DNA from: a virus | Strand: one strand, 5' to 3' | Length of the DNA stretch: 57,988 nt | Virus record (IMG/VR): IMGVR_UViG_3300031965_000033 | Span: 1-57,988 of that record | Shown here: positions 27,810 to 45,126 of the stretch, piece by piece | How the letters are laid out: each line of letters opens with the position of its first letter | Numbering within the stretch: position 1 is the stretch's first letter | Position numbers and translations under genes: made by a program | The notes under the pieces: generated by a model | What the model saw: only the letters and a program-made list of their open reading frames with translations | The model's database searches: none | Told to the model about the DNA's origin: nothing

Positions 27810-28199
27810 ATGAGTGACCGCGACACACCAGGAGACGGTGATGAGTTTGACGGATGGAGGGTCAGATGGTCCAGCCGTCGCCGCCGCAACTACCAGCGCG
27901 GAGAGCTCCACGAGCCGGTGCTCATCCTCACCAAGCCGGGGCGGTCCTGGGTCGAGGTCAAGGGCCAATGCGAGATCGACCGCCCGGTGATGCTCGCGCA
28001 CGGGATGGTGAGTGCATCGCTGTGCGACGCGCATTTCGCCCACCAGTGGGGGGATGAGGCGGCGGCGATCCGCTACGAGATCGAAGCCGAGCGGTGGCGG
28101 CAAATCGTGAAGGTTCGAACAATCGGCGCGGCAGTCCAACGTGTGGGCGCCGCACGCATGGCAGTAGAACCGGCGGGAGCCGGAGCGAAAGGACGGTAA
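27810..28199 (+). CDS. Hypothetical protein
   Basis: 129-aa ORF starting 4 nt after the upstream stop. Confidence 0.5.
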   Translation: MSDRDTPGDGDEFDGWRVRWSSRRRRNYQRGELHEPVLILTKPGRSWVEVKGQCEIDRPVMLAHGMVSASLCDAHFAHQWGDEAAAIRYEIEAERWRQIVKVRTIGAAVQRVGAARMAVEPAGAGAKGR

Positions 28200-28202
28200 C
28201 CA

Positions 28203-28646
28203 GTGGCAGTCAGCAATAAGTGGTACGGAAATGCGTTTTTGGCCGCCTTCGATAAGGAGATCGATTATCTCGCCGACGATATCGCCGTGACCCTGCATAC
28301 CGTGACCTACGTCCCGGATCAGGACGTTGACGATTATGCCGACGATGCGACGAACCAACTTTCGACCGCAAACGGGTACACGTCTGGTGGCGAGTTGCTC
28401 GGGAGCAAGACGAACGATTACACGTCGGGCACCAACGTCGTGGCGTTCAAGGCGGCCGACGTGGTCTGGACGGCAACGGGCACGCTGACGGCGAGACTGG
28501 CCGTAGTTTCGGACACGACACCAGGCACGGCGGGGACAAACCCGTTGCTCACCTATCACTTGAGCGATGCAGATATTTCAGCCACGGATGCATCCTGGAC
28601 CTTCGATTTACCTGCCGGAGGTTTTGCCACGATAACACCTGCTTAG
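28203..28646 (+). CDS. Hypothetical (virion-associated?) protein
   Basis: GTG start 4 nt after the upstream stop; 147 aa, beta-rich composition. Confidence 0.55.
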   Translation: MAVSNKWYGNAFLAAFDKEIDYLADDIAVTLHTVTYVPDQDVDDYADDATNQLSTANGYTSGGELLGSKTNDYTSGTNVVAFKAADVVWTATGTLTARLAVVSDTTPGTAGTNPLLTYHLSDADISATDASWTFDLPAGGFATITPA

Positions 28647-28651
28647 GGAAA

Positions 28652-29536
28652 CTATGGTCTCCATTCTGTTCCGCGAAGAATGGGGCCGATGCTTCCTCGA
28701 CTTACGCCGTATTTACCGGCAAGGGATCGCTGCGTATGACGACCGGATGCGTAGTCAAGACGAATAGCAGCAACCTGCTCGGTGGTCAATTTGGACCGAC
28801 CGTTACGTTCTCCTGTCCTGCCACGATCTTCGGAGGAAAGAAGCAGATGGGTAGGAACATCGCAACGCGGCTCATCGTCGGTTTTCCAGTACTCGTTGCG
28901 GACGATGACGGATACCAGAGATTTACTGACGCGGAACTCGGCAGCCAGGGAGCGGACAGTGCATTGCCCGGTGGCATAAGCTGCGCGGATAACCTCAACC
29001 TTAGCGTTAGTCAGTTTCGATTGCCCGTTCCCCTCGCCGCGCGGTCGCTTCTCCGGGTGCGTGTTGGCTCCATTCTTCTCGCCGTATGGCCGGCACTCCG
29101 GGTGAAGATGCGAGCCGTTCTCGTCTCCACGAAGGACCAACTCAGGCAATCGTCGCGTCCAGTGATCATCCCCACGAAGGACGCGCTCGGGATACAGACG
29201 CATGCCGTTCTTGTCTCCCACTGCTTGGCGTCCCTTGGCGACCATATCGGCCATGTTATCGGCCGGAGTACCAAGCCAAAGATGCTTAGGATTCACGCAC
29301 GACGGGTTGTCTCCGTTGGGGCAGTTGTGGCAAACGTGAAGGCCATCTGGAATCGATCCGTGGTGCAACCGCCAAGAAAAGCGGTGAGAAAAAATCAAAT
29401 GCCGCTTCACGGAAAATCTACCGTAGCCGGATTCAGTACGCCCGCCGATCCACAACCAACACGAATCCGGTCCGCCGGAGCAATCGACTTTCGACCAAAA
29501 ACGGGTAACGTCGCGTGGGGTAAACTGATCGAGCAT
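28652..29536 (-). CDS. HNH homing-type endonuclease with C-terminal repeats and HTH modules
   Basis: RFWSKVD..CWLWIG..GYGRF..HRFSW..LHVCHNCPNGDNPSCVNPKHLWLGT. Repeated NG..HPE..RG units and two SKLT...SLA..VS HTH-like units. The only minus-strand gene inside the head region. Confidence 0.85.
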   Translation of the reverse strand: MLDQFTPRDVTRFWSKVDCSGGPDSCWLWIGGRTESGYGRFSVKRHLIFSHRFSWRLHHGSIPDGLHVCHNCPNGDNPSCVNPKHLWLGTPADNMADMVAKGRQAVGDKNGMRLYPERVLRGDDHWTRRLPELVLRGDENGSHLHPECRPYGEKNGANTHPEKRPRGEGNGQSKLTNAKVEVIRAAYATGQCTVRSLAAEFRVSKSLVSVIVRNEYWKTDDEPRCDVPTHLLLSSEDRGRTGERNGRSKLTTEQVAAIRLDYASGRHTQRSLAGKYGVSRGSIGPILRGTEWRP

Positions 29537-34053: not shown

Positions 34054-35772
34054 ATGTCCCGGACCTGGACCTCATTCCAATTCGCCAAACCCGATAAGCG
34101 ATCATCGGCCATGGTTGGCCTCTGGCTTGCGCCCGAACCAGCCGCAACGCTCGCGCTCGATGGTCAACTCCCACCCGACCAACTGCATATCACGCTCGCG
34201 ATCCTGGAGGCCGATGCCGCCAGCCTGAGCGACGTGCAGCAGGCGCGTTTCCTGACCACGGTTGACGATCTCGCGGCTTGGACCGCGCCGCTTTCCGGCG
34301 ATGTCGCGGGCATGGGCCGGTTCTACGCGTCGGACTCGAGCGACGGTCAAGACGTGCTCTTTGCGATTCCGAATGTCGAGGGCTTGGGAAAACTCCGGCA
34401 CCGGCTGTGCGAGAACCTTGGGTACGCGCAACTCCCGCACAAAGACGACTTCGAGTTCTTTCCGCACATTAGCCTCGCCTACGTCGCGTCCGGCGCCGAA
34501 TCGCCCGTGGCTGCCGTCGCAACGACTCCGCTCAGTTTCACCGCCCTGACCGTCGTCATGGGCGATCGGATGACCACCGTCCCCCTTCGTGGTTGGTCCG
34601 ACGGCGCGATGTCCTACGCCGATGCCGGGATCATCGGCGAGGGGCACCGCCTGTTCACCGAACTGCAAACCTACATCGAACCGCCTGAATGGCTTCCGCT
34701 CATGCCGGCCCCCGGCAACTACGTGCACCGCGACTACGGCACGGTCGATTTACCGGCGGATCGGATCGAACGGCTTGTGGCCAGCATCAATAACGGGGTC
34801 TATCAAAAGTCGATTCCGATCGATGTCTCGCACGACAAGGACGATCTCGACCTAAACGGCGGGCTCGGCTGGTTCGGCACTGCCCGCATCAATGCCGACG
34901 GCTCCGCCGATGTGCGGGTCGAATGGACGCCGCGTGGCACGGAAGCGCTGCTGGCGGATCGGTTCCGGTACGTCAGTCCGGAGTTCGCGCTCTCATGGAA
35001 AGACGAGGACGGTGTTGATCACGACGATGTCGTGCTTGGCCTGGCCCTCTGCACGAATCCCTTTTTCAAGGACCTCGCGATCGATCGTGCGCTCGTTGCG
35101 TCCGAGCGCGGCGCGTCCGTTTCCACGCTTTCTCTTGTTCATCAGTTTGGCGAGCCGGTGCGGTTCGTCGCGAAGGATCAGGCGCACCGCGCGCCGGAGG
35201 AAACACTCATGGCAGACGAGAAGCCAGCAGTTGCCCCCACGGCTCAGCAGTTCACGGAGTTGAGCCAATCGTTCAGCGATCTCAAGACGAGTTTCGGCGA
35301 GTTGCAGCAGAAGTTCACCGAGTCGGAGACGGCGCGCGAGACTGAGAAGACCGCACGCGAAGCCGCCGAAGCCAAAGCGACCGAAGCCGATGCCCGCATC
35401 CAGGCGATGGAAGACGCGAAGCGGCGCAAGGAATTCACGGACGAGGTTCTCGGTAAGTCGGACGCGAGCGGGATTCGCTGGTTCGGCAACGCCGATAACC
35501 ACATCAAAATCCTTGAATCCTTTACCGACGATGCGCTCCGGCAGACCTACATCGACGAACAACGTGAGAACGCGAAGCGGATGACGGCGGCCGCGATCAA
35601 GCCGGAGATTGGCAGTGATGCGCCGGGAGAGACCGACATTCAGTCTCAGTACAACGCCGAGGTCACGCGGGTAATGACGGAATCGAAGGTGTCCAAGGCG
35701 CAGGCAACCCGCACGGTGTTGCGTGAGAACCGGGAGCTCGCGGCCGCGGTTGCGGCTGGAAAGGTCAAGTAA
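34054..35772 (+). CDS. Fusion protein: 2H phosphoesterase (LigT-like) domain + Mu gpI-type prohead protease + coiled-coil scaffold
   Basis: Two HxT/S motifs (LHITLAIL, PHISLAYV) about 100 aa apart. Then IPIDVSHDKDD..GWFGTARINADGSADVRVEWTPRG..FRYVSPEF (Mu I-like). Then a long Glu/Lys/Ala-rich helical region. The start may be 34111. Confidence 0.8.
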   Translation: MSRTWTSFQFAKPDKRSSAMVGLWLAPEPAATLALDGQLPPDQLHITLAILEADAASLSDVQQARFLTTVDDLAAWTAPLSGDVAGMGRFYASDSSDGQDVLFAIPNVEGLGKLRHRLCENLGYAQLPHKDDFEFFPHISLAYVASGAESPVAAVATTPLSFTALTVVMGDRMTTVPLRGWSDGAMSYADAGIIGEGHRLFTELQTYIEPPEWLPLMPAPGNYVHRDYGTVDLPADRIERLVASINNGVYQKSIPIDVSHDKDDLDLNGGLGWFGTARINADGSADVRVEWTPRGTEALLADRFRYVSPEFALSWKDEDGVDHDDVVLGLALCTNPFFKDLAIDRALVASERGASVSTLSLVHQFGEPVRFVAKDQAHRAPEETLMADEKPAVAPTAQQFTELSQSFSDLKTSFGELQQKFTESETARETEKTAREAAEAKATEADARIQAMEDAKRRKEFTDEVLGKSDASGIRWFGNADNHIKILESFTDDALRQTYIDEQRENAKRMTAAAIKPEIGSDAPGETDIQSQYNAEVTRVMTESKVSKAQATRTVLRENRELAAAVAAGKVK

Positions 35773-36183: not shown

Positions 36184-37134
36184 ATGGCTCAGCCCACACT
36201 CAGTTCAGTCCATATCAATCAGCCTTTGACACAGATTAGCGTCGCGTATCTGCAATCGGTAGATCACTACATCGCGACGAAGGTCTTTCCGATCGTGCGC
36301 GTCGGTAAACGCACGGACAGCTACTTCATTTACACCAAAGACGATTGGCGTCGCGATGAGGCGAAGATTCGACCACCGGGAACCGAGTCCGCTGGCTCCG
36401 GCTACGGGCTCAGCACAGCGACCTATACCGCCGACGTGTTCGCGTTCCACAAGGATGTCGACGGGCAAACACTTGCCAACTCAGACGATCCGCTGCGACC
36501 GTACGAGGACGCGACAGAGTACGTCACCCAGCGCTTGCTGCTCCGGCAGGAAAAGCAATGGACGGCCGACGCATTCGTCACCGGCGTGTGGGGCACCTCG
36601 ACTACACCCTCCGCGCTGTGGAGCACCTATGCGACGTCGGTCCCGATCACCGATGTCGAAACCGCGAAACGCACCATCTTGATCAATACCGGCTTTATGC
36701 CGAATACGATGGTGGTCGGGTACGACACGTACATTCAACTGATCAACCATCCCGATATCGTTGACCGGCTGTCGAACCAGTCAGACCGAATTGTCAACGA
36801 AGGGAAGCTCGCCTCGATCTTCGGACTCCCGAACTTCTATATCGCCAAGGCCTCGGAAAATACCGCCGTTGAGGGCGAAACCGCGGTCAACGCCTTCGTC
36901 CAGGGCAAGCACGCCTGGGTCGGCTATGTTGCGCCGAATCCATCGCTGTTGACTCCGAGCGCGGGCTACACCTTCGTCTGGGATTCCGTCTCGGGCGGCA
37001 TCGGTGAGGACATCGCGATCATGCGGCTCGATATGCCGTGGATCGACAGTGTGCGGATCGAGGGGCAGCTTGCATTCGATAATAAGTTGGTCGCAACAGA
37101 TTTAGGTTACATGTTCGTTGATGTGGTCGCATGA
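36184..37134 (+). CDS. Major capsid protein (lambda E / Mu T-like, HK97 fold)
   Basis: 316 aa after the scaffold and decoration genes. GAAGGAG RBS. The N-terminal QPLTQISVAY..ATKVFP.V.V region resembles Phage_cap_E-type capsids. Confidence 0.85.
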   Translation: MAQPTLSSVHINQPLTQISVAYLQSVDHYIATKVFPIVRVGKRTDSYFIYTKDDWRRDEAKIRPPGTESAGSGYGLSTATYTADVFAFHKDVDGQTLANSDDPLRPYEDATEYVTQRLLLRQEKQWTADAFVTGVWGTSTTPSALWSTYATSVPITDVETAKRTILINTGFMPNTMVVGYDTYIQLINHPDIVDRLSNQSDRIVNEGKLASIFGLPNFYIAKASENTAVEGETAVNAFVQGKHAWVGYVAPNPSLLTPSAGYTFVWDSVSGGIGEDIAIMRLDMPWIDSVRIEGQLAFDNKLVATDLGYMFVDVVA

Positions 37135-40326: not shown

Positions 40327-40668
40327 ATGCCAGAGCCAGTCGTTATCTACACATTCACACCGCAATTCGAGGGCGCGTATTTGAAGGATGTGCCGAAGCG
40401 CGATTTGACCGCAGTCGACGTCGCCAACATGACCGGGGCGCAGATGCGCGATGCGTTCAGTCCGCATCCTGTCCACGGCACGCCGCTCTATACGCCGGTC
40501 GATCCATCGAGCGCGCCGGACTTTTCGCACGTCCATGAGGCGCCGATCGAGATCATCTCGGAAGAAGAGCAGGCGCAGCGCCGGGCAGCGGGCGCGGCCG
40601 AAGCCAAACGCAAAGCCGACGCCGCGAAAGCGACAACGAAAGACACGGGCAAGGACGGTGAATCATGA
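40327..40668 (+). CDS. Hypothetical protein
   Basis: 113 aa with a Lys/Ala-rich C-terminus. Confidence 0.55.
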   Translation: MPEPVVIYTFTPQFEGAYLKDVPKRDLTAVDVANMTGAQMRDAFSPHPVHGTPLYTPVDPSSAPDFSHVHEAPIEIISEEEQAQRRAAGAAEAKRKADAAKATTKDTGKDGES

Positions 40669-41909
40669 CGGTTCCAGTCGGACCTCCAAACTATCAGCAG
40701 CTCGTGCGGACGCAGGTCGGCGTTGAAACCATCCGCGGCACCTCCGTCACCAAAACCAACAAGTGGTACGGTCGCCTGGCCTTGACCCGCCGTCAGCCTC
40801 TGGCCGATTCCGAGGACTTCGACGGCTCGTTCTTCGGTGACGTCGAGCCGGTCCGTGGCGCGATGATGGTCGACGGCACGTACTACCAGCCGATGGCGTA
40901 CGAGGATGTCCATCTGTTGCGCTACGCCGTCAAAGGCGGGGTGACGCCGGTGACCGATGGCGAGACGACGCCGGGTTATCTCAGCACCTTCCGCCACACC
41001 GGCAGCCGCGATGATCTCGATACCGCTTCGATCGAGTACGGCACGCCGGAGATGATCTGGGCGTGCAACGGGATCATGTTCCCGGAGTTCACATTTTCGA
41101 GCGATATCGACGATCCGCAGGCAGTGTGGAAATTCAACGCTCGCGCGATCGGACTCTCAAAGGACCTGAAGGCCGGACTCGATGACGTCGCCGCAACGTC
41201 CGGCACAACCACCACGTTCGTCAAAACCGCGTGGGGCTTGACGGGCTCCGCACACGTTGGCGCATGGATTCATGTCAAGAGCGGTACCGCCGGCAATATC
41301 GGGCTGTGGCGCGAAGTCACAGCCAATGACACCACGTCGTTAACCTTTGCCGCGCTGCCGTCTGCCGTGGCGTCTGGCGATGTGATCGACGTCTATCCGG
41401 TTTTCACAGCCGCTGTCGCCGATCGCGCACGTGAGAAGATCATCGGGCCGGGGACGAAACTTTACCTAGATCCGCTAGGCGGCACGATCGGAACGACTGA
41501 GATCACCGGGCGCTTTATTTCCTGGAGTGTCACGAGCCAGATCAACGCTGCCTACAAGCGCTTCCAGGACAATGTCGCCACAATGTCGAACCGGGTCGAT
41601 CGCGGCACGATCCGGATGACGGGTCAGGTGGTGCTGGAATTCGACCGCAAGGCCGAATGGGATCTGTACAAGGCGATGACGCCGAGCTTGATTCGCATCG
41701 AGCAAACCGGCACGACGATCGACGCCGGCGCCGGTACGACCAAGAGCGCGACGATCGATCTTTACCGTGCGGTATTCGATGATCCCACAGAAACAATACG
41801 TGGCAACAATGTTATCGCCACGTGGCCATTTAGAGCGTACAAATCCGTTGCTGAGTCTGTTTACGGAGAGTACGCGCTGAAGACAACCGCAGCGGCATTG
41901 CTGGCCTAA
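40665..41909 (+). CDS. Major tail protein (putative)
   Basis: ATGA overlap. At 414 aa, the largest gene between the connectors and the chaperones. Confidence 0.5.
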   Translation: MTVPVGPPNYQQLVRTQVGVETIRGTSVTKTNKWYGRLALTRRQPLADSEDFDGSFFGDVEPVRGAMMVDGTYYQPMAYEDVHLLRYAVKGGVTPVTDGETTPGYLSTFRHTGSRDDLDTASIEYGTPEMIWACNGIMFPEFTFSSDIDDPQAVWKFNARAIGLSKDLKAGLDDVAATSGTTTTFVKTAWGLTGSAHVGAWIHVKSGTAGNIGLWREVTANDTTSLTFAALPSAVASGDVIDVYPVFTAAVADRAREKIIGPGTKLYLDPLGGTIGTTEITGRFISWSVTSQINAAYKRFQDNVATMSNRVDRGTIRMTGQVVLEFDRKAEWDLYKAMTPSLIRIEQTGTTIDAGAGTTKSATIDLYRAVFDDPTETIRGNNVIATWPFRAYKSVAESVYGEYALKTTAAALLA

Positions 41910-41912
41910 TCG

Positions 41913-42215
41913 ATGAGCTCATCCCCGCTCACCTGCCGGTGCGGCCGCATCCTGGCGACGAGGCACCACGGTGGGCGGGTGCATGTCTGTGAGCGGATCG
42001 GGGTCGTACTGGAGCCGACGGGGCAGTTCGGGCCGTTCGCGCGGTTGACGTGTGTGTGCGGGGCAGCACGGAACGTGACGATGGCGCGGGGATCGGCTAC
42101 GCCGGGGGATCGGGACTTGCGTTTACGCGATCTATCCAGTCCGCGATCCGTTCAGGATGATACAACCGGACATCTGTCAGTCGATCAAAGATCCCCGGAT
42201 GTGCCGCACGCATAA
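41913..42215 (+). CDS. Possible zinc-ribbon protein
   Basis: The N-terminal half has CRCG...HVCE...CVCG. The 3' 118 nt overlap the convergent gene 42097..42429. Confidence 0.35.
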   Translation: MSSSPLTCRCGRILATRHHGGRVHVCERIGVVLEPTGQFGPFARLTCVCGAARNVTMARGSATPGDRDLRLRDLSSPRSVQDDTTGHLSVDQRSPDVPHA

Positions 42216-42429
42216 CAGTCAACTCACGGCAATTGGTCAATCGTCTAGCGTCTTCCCACTTTTCAATCCAGCGACCTCCGCGAGATCGCACCACAAGCCG
42301 GACGCGATCCCCGGCATTGCCGACGTTGAATCCGCAGATGTACGCCTTCGCTCCAACAGATGCGACGTTGGTTGCCTCTGCATAGTTGCAGGCGATGGCG
42401 CGGACCTCGTCCGTATTCGGTTCGCTCAT
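42097..42429 (-). CDS. Hypothetical protein (island operon gene 4)
   Basis: ATGA-coupled to the upstream gene; 110 aa. Confidence 0.6.
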   Translation of the reverse strand: MSEPNTDEVRAIACNYAEATNVASVGAKAYICGFNVGNAGDRVRLVVRSRGGRWIEKWEDARRLTNCRELTVMRAAHPGIFDRLTDVRLYHPERIADWIDRVNASPDPPA

Positions 42430-42608
42430 TCCTCATCCTCGTTGAGTTCTTGGATTCGACTCAAAGCAACCGCGTTGCGAAGACGACGTATGAGACTTGC
42501 CTCAACGTCGGTGATTGATTCGATTGCGAGTTGCTGGAGGTGGTCCCATAGCCATGCGGCATCCTGGTTCTCAAACGTTACGACACGGACGGTTTGGTTC
42601 TCTCTCAT
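42426..42608 (-). CDS. Hypothetical protein (island operon gene 3)
   Basis: ATGA-coupled on both sides; 60 aa with an acidic tail. Confidence 0.55.
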   Translation of the reverse strand: MRENQTVRVVTFENQDAAWLWDHLQQLAIESITDVEASLIRRLRNAVALSRIQELNEDEE

Positions 42609-43141
42609 TTATCATCCTCCGGCGTCAACTCCCGTGGCTCGACACCGAGCGGCGTCTTCTTCCGGCCGCGTCCTGGAATAAGCAGCGCCGAGATAATCCT
42701 AACGTCACGATCATCAAACACGAGTAAGCGGGCACCGATCTGCGAACCGAGCCCGTGCTTCGCGGCTAGCTTGCGAACGTGAGCGGCTGAGATGCCCAGC
42801 CGCTCCGCTACCTCTTGGGTAGTGATTGGGACAGTCGGGCCCGATGCTAGTTGAGTTGGCCGCGAAAGATTGACGATGGTATCCCCGCGCTCTCGAAGGC
42901 GATCCATCCATTCAGCTTCGGAACCAATGAGATCATAAGCGTGCTTGATTTCCTCGAGGCATTCGAAGGAGAAGGTAGACGGCCCGTCTTCAGTCCAAGC
43001 GTTCTGAAGATGTTCGTTGTAATGACTCTTTCTCTTCAATAGGGCGCGATGATTCGAAAACCGAGACTCAATGTTGATACTACTGCCGACATAGGCAATT
43101 CCTCGGCCTACACTTCGAACGGCATATACCCCTATCGTCAT
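42605..43141 (-). CDS. GIY-YIG nuclease with C-terminal helix-turn-helix
   Basis: GVYAVRSVGRGIAYVGSSINIESRFSNH..HYNEHLQNAW (GIY...YIG...R...N). C-terminal ITTQEVAERLGISAAHVRKLA. Confidence 0.85.
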   Translation of the reverse strand: MTIGVYAVRSVGRGIAYVGSSINIESRFSNHRALLKRKSHYNEHLQNAWTEDGPSTFSFECLEEIKHAYDLIGSEAEWMDRLRERGDTIVNLSRPTQLASGPTVPITTQEVAERLGISAAHVRKLAAKHGLGSQIGARLLVFDDRDVRIISALLIPGRGRKKTPLGVEPRELTPEDDK

Positions 43142-43317
43142 TTGATCCCCATCTCCTTCCGTACTCGTTCAATCTCTGTTGGATCGAACCGCCGATATCC
43201 GCTCAGTAATTTAATCATCGGAACCTTGCCGGCGTCGGCCCACGTCCGCAATGTCGTTGGGTGAACTCCAAGCCGTCGGGCCGCTTGAGCGATCGTCAAG
43301 AGTTTCGATTCTGCCAT
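43138..43317 (-). CDS. Excisionase/MerR-type HTH DNA-binding protein
   Basis: ATG 43317 lies 6 nt after AGGAGGG. LLTIAQAARRLGVHPTTLRTWADAGKVP. The ORF opens at 43596, but that part is upstream of the promoter. Confidence 0.8.
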   Translation of the reverse strand: MAESKLLTIAQAARRLGVHPTTLRTWADAGKVPMIKLLSGYRRFDPTEIERVRKEMGIK

Positions 43318-43336
43318 CTCGTACCCTCCTGCGCTC

Positions 43337-43365
43337 ATCATACCAAAATAGAACGACTTTAGCAA
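43337..43365 (-). promoter_or_regulatory. Leftward island promoter TTGCTA-17-TATGAT
   Basis: On the minus strand, ttgcta (43365-43360), 17-nt spacer, tatgat (43342-43337). Confidence 0.6.
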
Positions 43366-43371
43366 GAACGC

Positions 43372-43400
43372 TTGACTTTTACAGTAGACTTTGATAGACT
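43372..43400 (+). promoter_or_regulatory. Rightward island promoter TTGACT-17-TAGACT with GACTTT repeats
   Basis: ttgact at 43372-43377 and tagact at 43395-43400. GACTTT occurs at 43355, 43374, 43387 and 43397. Confidence 0.6.
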
Positions 43401-43437
43401 TTAGACATTGAATCGGACGACAGAAACGGAGACGGAC

Positions 43438-43629
43438 ATGACACAGGCTGAGATGAGAATCGAAAACATGAAGCACCTGACCGATGCGGACCTGGTCAAG
43501 CGAGCCCTGACCGACGATCACACGAGCGCATACCGCAGCAACCACTACATCTCTTCCCCGACCAACCTGTACCGAGCGGAGTTGCAGCGGCGACAAGCGG
43601 TCGCCGCAACGGAATTGGTGGCCGCGTGA
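43438..43629 (+). CDS. Hypothetical protein (island, rightward gene 1)
   Basis: ATG 43438 after GGAGACGG (the ORF opens at TTG 43408). Confidence 0.5.
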   Translation: MTQAEMRIENMKHLTDADLVKRALTDDHTSAYRSNHYISSPTNLYRAELQRRQAVAATELVAA

Positions 43630-43883
43630 TGGTGACCTTGACGAGCAAGCTCTACAAAGGACTCGAGTGGTCGACGGATCGCGCGGAAGGCGTGACCTCG
43701 ATCGAGCACGCGGCGCGAATGTTGGCGCGGTGGACGGCGATGTATGCGCGGCCGGAAGCGATCCAGGCCGGAGCCGATGCCAAGTTCTGGTTCCGGCGGG
43801 ATGATTACAATTTATTAGTAACCGTACAGAATGTGTCCATTGACGATCTACGAGCGGCGTACCGGCAACTCCGCGCGTCGTGA
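43626..43883 (+). CDS. Hypothetical protein (island, rightward gene 2)
   Basis: GTGA overlap; 85 aa. Confidence 0.55.
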   Translation: MMVTLTSKLYKGLEWSTDRAEGVTSIEHAARMLARWTAMYARPEAIQAGADAKFWFRRDDYNLLVTVQNVSIDDLRAAYRQLRAS

Positions 43884-44006
43884 GCGCTTGTCATGACGAT
43901 TTGATCCCGCGCTTCTCCGCTAATTCGCGTATCAAAATCTCCAGCATCGCCGTCTTATCGACGCCTTGCCTTTCCGCCATTTGAGCTCATCAAAACGCTG
44001 GAAGAC

Positions 44007-44531
44007 TTGGAGTACGACATTCCCGCCGAGGCCACGCACGAGGAAATCCTTGAAGCCATCAAGAAAGTCGCAGCTCAGCGGAACGGCAATACCTTCCGGC
44101 GCAACGAAGACGGATTGTTCCTGAGCGGCTACCAGATCAAAGCCATGCTGAAAGAAGCAACCGCGATCATGTTCCCCGGCGGCAACGGCGACGGAACGCA
44201 CAAGTGGGGAATCACGAGAAAAGCGCCGCGCTCGTATCTTGCGGAACGTGTGTTTGTGGACGAATTAGCGGTGCCACTCGGACGCACGGAACCGGACGGA
44301 ACGCACCTACAGATCGGACAAGTCAAGAGTCCGAAAGGGCAACGGTCCACGCTGACCTATGTGGATTATTGCGAGCAACCGACAATATCGTTCACGATTT
44401 CATCTGCGCAAGACTGCATCGATCGCACGAAGTGGACGGAGATTTTTGTGTTGAGCCAGCGGCTGGGACTTGGGGCGTTGCGGTCGATGGGCTACGGTAC
44501 ATTCAAAGTAACGGCATTTGATAAGGCATGA
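44007..44531 (+). CDS. RAMP-like protein (Cas6/Cas7-type glycine-rich loop); function unknown
   Basis: C-terminal GLGALRSMGYGTF fits the GhGxxxxxGhG loop of RAMP proteins. N-terminal LSGYQIKAMLKEA resembles the [ST]xhKGxhR motif. TTG start is uncertain. Confidence 0.5.
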   Translation: MEYDIPAEATHEEILEAIKKVAAQRNGNTFRRNEDGLFLSGYQIKAMLKEATAIMFPGGNGDGTHKWGITRKAPRSYLAERVFVDELAVPLGRTEPDGTHLQIGQVKSPKGQRSTLTYVDYCEQPTISFTISSAQDCIDRTKWTEIFVLSQRLGLGALRSMGYGTFKVTAFDKA

Positions 44532-45005
44532 CGCGGTTGAGACCGCTACACGAATCGACCGCCCGAACCCGCGTTGATCAGTTCGTCTCGCGTCACCGCG
44601 ACTACCCTTCACCTTTCGGCACTTGTCATCTCAGTTCGCACCGACGGTTCCAGTTCCTTCTCGACGAATCGACGTTTCGTAACGGAGCCATTCTGTGCGC
44701 CCCGACGTACCGTGACGGTCCCAGGCTTTGCGAATCGACTATCCGCTACCGTTCCCCTCGTCTCGTCTCGACTACTCTATTCGTGACTTATCGACACAAG
44801 CCGACGTGACTGTACCGCCCAGGTCTCGACTGGCCAAATCCGAGTATACCGACTACCCGCTACTGCACCCCTCGTCTTATTTCGACGAGACTGGTCGACT
44901 CACCCTGAGCCATGACCTGACGCACCGACTAGCCGCCACGCGACTCTTCTTTCCCCCGCGACGGGGCATAACGATGTGACATCGTGACCGCTTGCGGCCA
45001 GGGAG
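44532..45005 (+). other. C-rich, strand-asymmetric CGAC-repeat tract (probably untranslated RNA)
   Basis: 17 CGAC on the plus strand against 1 GTCG. Hand count over 44581-44940: A65 C132 G77 T86. Degenerate 100-137-bp repeats (CGACTAYCC at 44599, 44736, 44849). All three forward frames are partly open, and no ORF looks protein-like. Confidence 0.55.
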
Positions 45006-45059
45006 CGCCTAGTGTGGTAGACTGACCCTCAGCAAACCAAAAACATGGTGGACGTACGG

Positions 45060-45104
45060 GCCGCCGGTGGACTCGCTGTAATCGCGAGTTGCCGGCGGCT
45101 TTTT
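45060..45104 (+). terminator. Strong intrinsic terminator closing the island
   Basis: gccgccgg...actcgc-tgtaatc-gcgagt...ccggcggc (8 + 6 bp) followed by TTTTT. Confidence 0.85.
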
Positions 45105-45126
45105 CGTATTACCCAAAGGATCAACG

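Follow-up and report, generated by a model that had tools for sequence, protein, structure and literature searches.

Why would a phage keep 474 nt of C-rich, apparently gene-free DNA directly behind a gene for a RAMP-like protein? The question is raised by positions 44532-45005 of a 57,988-nt stretch of viral DNA (IMG/VR record IMGVR_UViG_3300031965_000033, positions 1 to 57,988), here called the window, whose numbering is used throughout. An earlier note, made from the letters alone, had described this tract as non-coding, packed with CGAC motifs and co-transcribed with the upstream gene, and had offered a protein-binding RNA array, a decoy or sponge, and a DNA-binding array as possible readings. 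Our analysis leads, with a probability of roughly 70%, to a guide-like repeat-RNA array of a system resembling VIPR (Viral Interference Programmable Repeat), in which phage stand-alone RAMPs (Vipr) occur with an accessory gene and flanking 'intergenic' regions (bioRxiv 10.64898/2026.04.26.720920).

A pentamer array with GAC punctuation

The base count at 44581-44940 (A65 C132 G77 T86) and the 17 CGAC (nine as TCGAC) against a single GTCG in the tract were reproduced exactly as first reported; the density over the whole window predicts about 4 CGAC and 3 GTCG for a tract of this length. When 474-nt windows were moved across the 57,988 nt in steps of 50 nt, the tract had both the largest excess of CGAC over GTCG and the largest skew of C over G (+0.23), with C at 36% versus G at 23% over its 474 nt. 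CGACTAYCC is present in three copies (44599, 44736 and 44850), and the longer degenerate repeat that had been noticed by eye was recovered by a repeat search as 44736-44783 versus 44850-44897, with 75% identity across 48 nt; it is a duplicated pair of array units.

The underlying order of the tract is a period of five nucleotides. Base identity is 0.37 at a lag of 5 and 0.36 at a lag of 10, versus about 0.22 at the neighbouring lags, and the autocorrelation of C at lag 5 is 0.26. None of 2000 dinucleotide-preserving shuffles reached the observed values (z = 7.5 for the 5-nt periodicity and 5.3 for the C autocorrelation), and the tract region holds the strongest 5-nt periodicity of the whole window. 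Two 200-nt windows elsewhere, at 41881-42100 and 43381-43580, also passed a loose threshold of 0.15 on the C lag-5 signal; they show no CGAC enrichment and their signal is probably due to chance.

Splitting the array at each CGAC gave a series of units made of GAC and a run of NNNYC pentamers (Table 1). The well-formed units measure 43, 43, 33, 33, 33, 23, 23 and 33 nt and some of the others are degenerate; one example of a unit reads GAC tacCC ttcAC cttTC ggcAC ttgTC atcTC agtTC gcaCC. The C excess of the tract arises because every pentamer carries the YC anchor, and CGAC is the C/GAC junction that marks the unit boundaries. The CGAC enrichment claimed before is thus real, but CGAC is not itself the repeating unit, since it forms the junction between runs of NNNYC pentamers.

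A leader hairpin separates the RAMP stop codon from the first unit. An equivalent hairpin followed by TA(G/C)AC occupies the same place, between RAMP stop and array, in 10 loci, where the stems vary (GCCCG/CGGGC, GCCGG/CCGGC, GCCGT/ACGGC); three of the five stem pairs vary on both sides with the pairing unbroken. At the other end, an intrinsic terminator closes a + strand unit shared by the tract and the RAMP-like gene, in agreement with the co-transcription suggested earlier, and the closest relative (L001) has an equivalent + strand terminator 3' of its array.

Table 1. Features of the RAMP-array locus in the window
Feature	Position	Strand	Basis
Rearrangement junction; accessory gene (~200 aa, 5' of RAMP in relatives) absent	43423..43985	.	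blastn/tblastx of L001 versus window; conservation of the accessory gene
5'-truncated Cas7-like / Vipr-like RAMP gene	43986..44531	+	homology to the full-length ~240-aa family begins at 43986
Leader hairpin GCGGT-TGAG-ACCGC (44533-44546), then conserved TACAC; between RAMP stop codon and first unit	44533..44551	+	
Array of 16 units, each GAC + 1-8 NNNYC pentamers	44556..44962	+	unit parse; periodicity statistics
Duplication within the array: two adjacent units, 44704-44783 resembling 44803-44897	44704..44897	+	repeat search (75% over 48 nt); unit parse
Terminal units, 90% identical to closest relative L001; rest of array unalignable	44927..44965	+	blastn of L001 versus window
Intrinsic terminator, 40-nt hairpin (-34.5 kcal/mol), then UUUUU	45060..45104	+	fold z = -5.5; U-run on + strand only; custom terminator scan

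A non-coding tract

The three overlapping + strand ORFs of 70-93 aa in the tract had no match in Pfam or PHROG, and ARAGORN found no tRNA in it. The Infernal/Rfam search that had been proposed for the tract yielded no family at gathering score, nor even at E<=1, and no hammerhead. TRF reported no tandem array, and blastn against 50,697 phage records detected no similar DNA. The global RNA fold did not beat shuffled sequences on either strand (z = 0.18 and -0.54), and this absence of a stable global fold would fit an extended RNA that is coated by protein.

Another account is coding: the tract could be what is left, after decay or frameshift, of a gene whose protein was of low complexity and rich in Pro/Ser/Thr/Arg, or it could be translated in relatives, and open stretches of up to 585 codons do cross it in related loci. 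We give it almost no credence. The three frames are open at once through stop-codon depletion and the motif falls in every one of them (as does CGACTACCC, the most frequent 9-mer of the related arrays), so that the long ORFs of the relatives are no evidence of coding; the period is 5 and not 3, no family match was obtained from Pfam or PHROG, and gene callers leave these regions empty. Protein coding of the tract was rejected on these grounds, and two earlier claims, that the tract is non-coding and that its repeats act at the level of the nucleic acid, hold.

A Cas7-like RAMP next to the array

The mechanical ORF for the RAMP starts at a TTG at 44007 and ends at 44531 (174 aa), but nearly all of its 129 homologues have 230-260 aa. 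A tblastn search of the window with the full-length homologue P0002 aligned residues 59-238 only; the N-terminal 58 residues match nowhere in the window, which encodes the C-terminal 181 of about 239 residues. In the family alignment an MGG(V/I)PxxP motif near the N-terminus is conserved and a C-terminal loop, GxGALRSxGxG, is invariant; the window protein keeps the G-rich loop (GLGALRSMGYG) and is missing the first beta-strand and the MGG(V/I)PxxP motif. The gene at 44007-44531 is therefore RAMP-like, as had been proposed, but it is 5'-truncated and not complete. Two other causes of the short product were rejected: an intron or intein, since the 58 lost codons do not turn up anywhere else in the window and the comparison with L001 shows an inversion and a deletion, and a recurrent natural short isoform, since contig ends cut off the other short members of the family.

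An AF2 model of the full-length P0002 (pLDDT 83.8) was compared with known structures by Foldseek, and the top 50 PDB matches were all Cas7-type RAMPs (E ~1e-6, probability 1.0), among them Csm3, Cas7-11 domains, type VII Cas7 and Cmr4. As judged from this model, the family is a single-domain Cas7-like protein of about 240 aa; the HMM matches to Csm4/Cas5 are weak, sub-threshold and confined to the G-loop. An exhaustive profile search collected 1,435 clusters at 50% identity, with one match in 185,579 species-representative genomes and, for cultured phages, one record in 50,697 phage genomes, that of Microcystis phage Mae-JY09.

In regards to a relationship with Vipr itself, we located the SUSP1 locus (vipr 28474-29061, vap1 28031-28471), in which the YNNGG runs lie on the vipr strand. 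An hhalign comparison of the present family with the SUSP1-type Vipr profile gave a weak match (E = 3.2e-4, probability 39%, 123 collinear columns). For the AF2 models of P0002 and SUSP1 Vipr alike, the significant viral matches are confined to five BFVD entries, which are the same for both.

Arrays of relatives: constant rule, hypervariable content

The relatives comprise 37 loci in IMG/VR contigs plus several metagenome contigs. C-periodic arrays adjoin the RAMP gene, always on the RAMP strand, in about 36 of 41 loci at 28-88% protein identity; the adjacency persists where the proteins are only 28-33% identical, and over a range of 46-70% in the GC content of the phages. The search of metagenomes for such tracts beside homologous proteins, suggested in the earlier note, has thus been carried out, and the tie that it drew between the tract and the upstream gene is kept in these 36 or so loci. 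The arrays are 200-2000 nt long, strongly C-skewed and 5-nt-periodic, and stand downstream of the RAMP gene, upstream of it or on both sides.

Taking 28 arrays together (23 kb), base identity is highest at lags of 5, 10, 15 and 20 nt and, beyond these, at 5k+3, which is also the spacing from CGAC to CGAC (peaks at 28, 33, 38, 43 and 48 nt). CGAC was counted 610 times versus 84 for GTCG, and the top 9-mers were CGACTACCC (38 copies; its reverse complement none), CGACTTCCC and CGACTAGCC. The position matrices of the family have the form GAC + (NNNYC)n, and every fifth base is C in 92-100% of cases; within the pentamer, position 5 is C in 98% and position 4 is C or T in 79%, while the other three positions are unbiased. 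A codon-register test on these variable triplets gave a weak bias (position 3 at 64% GC).

The content of the arrays changes much faster than their surroundings. Two relatives, L020 and L021, are 88% identical in their flanks, yet their arrays are unlike in length and content, and the genes of the window and L001 agree in 78% of their nucleotides, although no more than 39 nt of the arrays can be aligned. A RAMP gene with an adjoining, hypervariable and pentamer-periodic array fits the VIPR idea well.

In the relatives a conserved accessory gene (~170-200 aa, two subfamilies) lies 5' of the RAMP gene or of the upstream array, without a match in Pfam or PHROG, and upstream arrays span the whole interval from the stop of the accessory gene to the RAMP ribosome-binding site. 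The locus belongs there to the replication module, where a primase-helicase or SNF2 helicase gene is its neighbour and the terminase gene often follows immediately.

Several of these loci deserve mention in their own right. In Mae-JY09 the last ~500 nt (L046 5751-6267, PP395641.1 38460-38976) are unannotated and form a C-anchored pentamer array directly 3' of the RAMP homologue WWT39994.1, which is annotated as a hypothetical protein. One array of about 1.9 kb contains 68 CGAC (L032 3144-4990), another locus has arrays on both sides of the RAMP gene (L039 4201-4990 and 5844-7010), and a further very long array is found at L019 5793-7570; all three loci far exceed the three-to-four-RNA loci described for SUSP1. 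In L001 the accessory gene is preceded, on its own strand, by an HTH-encoding stretch without a called gene (2729-2899, versus window 43147-43317), and a small MerR-like regulator may be part of the operon there. Genes for C5 and N6/N4 DNA methyltransferases, or for a SNF2-type helicase directly upstream of the array, are a frequent feature of loci with this system (L049 1-659 and 1186-1731, L038 1081-3249), and either could be a candidate accessory function.

Two accounts without guide RNAs were weighed against these data. The replication-module setting, often just before terminase, the strand asymmetry of the motif and the fact that some spacings are near helical multiples would suit an element acting as DNA, such as origin iterons, a partition or packaging site, or primase sites with GTC on the complement. 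Yet the conserved partner has an RRM/RAMP fold and not a DNA-binding fold, the content is hypervariable between near-identical phages, unlike that of origins or pac sites, the covarying hairpin points to single-stranded nucleic acid, and the array of the window sits among tail genes. The asymmetry of GAC over GTC is moreover inconsistent across loci (16 vs 15 in L009), for which reason the primase-site reading was rejected. We regard a DNA-level element as highly improbable.

The other account, a Rho-utilisation (rut) region in which the tract would mainly load Rho and thereby end transcription, or cause polarity, at the operon's end, is hardly more probable. The tract does have the at least 80 nt of unstructured, untranslated RNA with C above G by which rut sites are recognised (C 36% vs G 23% over 474 nt, fold z = 0.18), as well as a regular YC spacing; the periodic, punctuated and hypervariable architecture is left unexplained. 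A rut site could do without a strict register of 5 nt in which C takes 98% of the fifth positions, and without GAC punctuation at 5k+3, an exclusive partner from a single family or hypervariable content. A strong intrinsic terminator is already present in the window, and in the many relatives whose array is upstream of the RAMP gene, Rho termination there would silence that gene. Rho loading may be a side effect that is prevented by a coat of RAMP.

The tract is a genuine feature, non-coding and conserved, and the best explanation for it is a VIPR-like guide array of a distinct variant, C-anchored (or antisense G-anchored). Of the options first offered, the protein-binding RNA array came closest and a DNA-binding array is much less likely; the decoy or sponge was dropped, since nothing supports it and the architecture matches VIPR guide-RNA arrays.

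Which strand would carry the functional RNA

The reverse complement of the array reads GRNNN, and the functional RNA could thus be antisense to the RAMP gene. The system would then be the same, with G-anchored RNAs made from the minus strand, and it would be an ordinary, already described VIPR type. We consider this unlikely, though it has to be taken seriously. Every published VIPR repeat is G-anchored and the present anchor on the RAMP strand is C; read from the minus strand, the anchors become G at 98% and G/A at 79%, near the NNNGG and NNNNG forms of the preprint, but the third anchor position has no pyrimidine preference there (50%). The hairpin beside the RAMP stop would become the 3'-terminal hairpin of an antisense transcript; in L020, it has a low score when taken as a terminator of the minus strand. 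Against this, our survey found canonical intrinsic terminators right after the arrays in two cases, the window and L001, both times on the + strand and not on the other, and the SUSP1 arrays sit on the vipr strand. Loci with an upstream array leave no room for an antisense promoter between array and RAMP start codon, and because such arrays fill the interval between accessory stop and RAMP ribosome-binding site, sense transcription through them is required for RAMP expression. Promoter scans were uninformative. On balance we favour the sense strand over the antisense one by about 3:1.

State of the locus in the window

Genes for a major head protein, a head protease, a tape-measure protein and a primase are present in the window, and the island with the array lies among the tail genes, between 40665-41909 and the tape-measure gene and beside a GIY-YIG endonuclease gene. 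The window RAMP is 88% identical in protein sequence to that of L001. The segment 43423-43864, with two small genes, is inverted relative to L001, as is the weaker tblastx match to the HTH region 43147-43317, and about 120 nt of unique sequence (43865-43985) adjoin the truncated RAMP. As the lost part contains the first beta-strand of the RRM core in the P0002 model, the remnant is unlikely to fold. With the first 58 codons of the RAMP and the accessory gene gone, the array is probably orphaned and the VIPR-like system of the window probably disabled; the array has probably either been stranded recently or is usable only with a RAMP supplied in trans. Its periodicity is still clean, and the loss would therefore be recent, or an assembly chimera, or else the array is used in trans. 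The broken appearance of the locus lowers its biological weight in this particular genome.

Other genes in the window are worth recording. The GIY-YIG gene (42605-43141, - strand) is homing-endonuclease-like with a C-terminal HTH (Pfam GIY-YIG 1.1e-7; phrog_7168 1.6e-13) and is adjoined by a MerR/excisionase-type HTH gene (43138-43596, - strand); together with the RAMP remnant they make up an island of about 3 kb (41913-45110) in the tail-gene region. A 572-aa protein (34054-35772, + strand), whose gene closely precedes that of the major head protein (36184-37134), matches PHROG 'RNA ligase' families over its N-terminal ~190 residues (5.6e-22) and a head-maturation protease family over residues 208-464, an unusual fusion.

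Proposed mechanism and significance

The periodicity, the strand-specific adjacency to the RAMP gene, the hypervariability, the Cas7-like fold and the structural kinship with the validated SUSP1 Vipr are observations. From the loci that are intact we infer an operon in which the accessory protein (~170-200 aa) and the Cas7-like RAMP (~240 aa) would be expressed with one or two long arrays, each array being transcribed together with the RAMP gene and its sense, C-rich strand serving as the functional RNA. Each RAMP protomer would bind one pentamer, gripping it by the invariant YC and leaving its three variable bases exposed, and by analogy with VIPR these bases might read a target nucleic acid in gapped fashion; the target would probably be the DNA of competing phages. 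The GAC triplet and the WNNCC pentamer that follows it would form the boundary between guides of 5-9 pentamers, and probably a processing site.

Searches for such targets gave no match above expectation: 138 units compared with 433 kb of related phage DNA, with skips of 0, 1 or 3 nt, did no better than shuffled controls, and unit 2 of the window had 0 matches in IMG/VR for exact ungapped and 1-nt-skip patterns, exact scans being a weak test.

If the sense C-rich RNA is the functional one, the family could be a distinct branch of RAMP-guided systems with a code of its own: the anchor would be YC, each protomer would have three variable bases, GAC would delimit the guides, and an array would hold dozens of them in up to 2 kb. 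We put this forward tentatively, with more doubt than confidence. The 'noncontiguous code' would in that case reach beyond its G-anchored forms and a second programmable recognition rule would exist. Systems of a RAMP with pentamer repeats were reported only in 2026, and have been put forward as CRISPR ancestors and as programmable DNA binders of very small size. The present family would widen this class by a C anchor on the gene strand, three variable bases and very long multi-guide arrays, and would put to the test the way in which the protein recognises the anchor and the number of target bases that a protomer specifies. The arrays also account for hundreds of 'empty' nucleotides in many phage genomes, including that of an isolated Microcystis phage.

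Comparison with known systems

Phage RNA anti-CRISPRs, or solitary repeat units, mimic the full-length CRISPR repeats of the host and act as decoys. The present arrays resemble them in being phage-borne, non-coding repeats related to RAMP-binding RNA, but they consist of pentamers and their cognate RAMP is encoded alongside. With rut sites they share an RNA that is untranslated, unstructured, rich in C and poor in G and in which YC dinucleotides are frequent, and differ in the strict 5-nt register, the GAC punctuation, the hypervariable content and the obligatory RAMP partner.

The likeness to the Cas7 backbone filaments (Csm3, Cmr4, Cas7-11 and type VII Cas7) lies in the RRM core and the G-rich loop and, as in Cas7-crRNA filaments, the protomers would likely polymerise on an extended, unstructured RNA at a fixed nucleotide period. 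That period is 5 nt and not 6 as in CRISPR-Cas, and there is neither a repeat-spacer array nor another cas gene; Cas6, Cas5 and Cas10 are absent from the present loci, whose setting is lytic-type phage genomes. In the window, the tract has no CRISPR-type direct repeats (23-50 nt) and no other cas-like neighbours.

The closest counterpart is VIPR, for which the comparison draws on preprints and sets the present family against the published types by description. There the flanks encode RNAs of tandem pentamers (YNNGG, also NNNGG, YNNNG and NNNNG), whose hypervariable bases guide DNA binding by a gapped code (10.64898/2026.04.26.720920), with one Vipr protomer per pentamer (bioRxiv 10.64898/2026.04.26.720927). 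The vrRNAs of type II are about 100 nt long, with 9-16 repeats and then a structured 3' tail that does not vary, and others of the seven types have staggered or ribozyme-separated arrays (VIPR preprint). The present family likewise has a single small RAMP, encoded by a phage outside any CRISPR-Cas locus, and long flanks, upstream and/or downstream, of pentamers with invariant anchors and hypervariable bases; the arrays lie on the strand of the RAMP gene as in SUSP1, and in the relatives of the window the RAMP and an accessory gene, which may be a counterpart of vap, would form a two-gene operon as in type II (SUSP1), although the order, accessory gene and then RAMP, differs from that of SUSP1. 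The RAMP has about 240 aa with a helical insertion, versus about 195 aa for SUSP1 Vipr. Unlike the YNNGG repeats of SUSP1 with their GGY anchor, the sense strand carries NNNYC with a YC anchor, and three bases per pentamer are variable instead of two. The guides, of 5-9 pentamers (up to 16), are split only by GAC and lack the structured 3' tail of vrRNAs and, unlike SUSP1, each array has one leader hairpin and may extend to about 2 kb with dozens of units.
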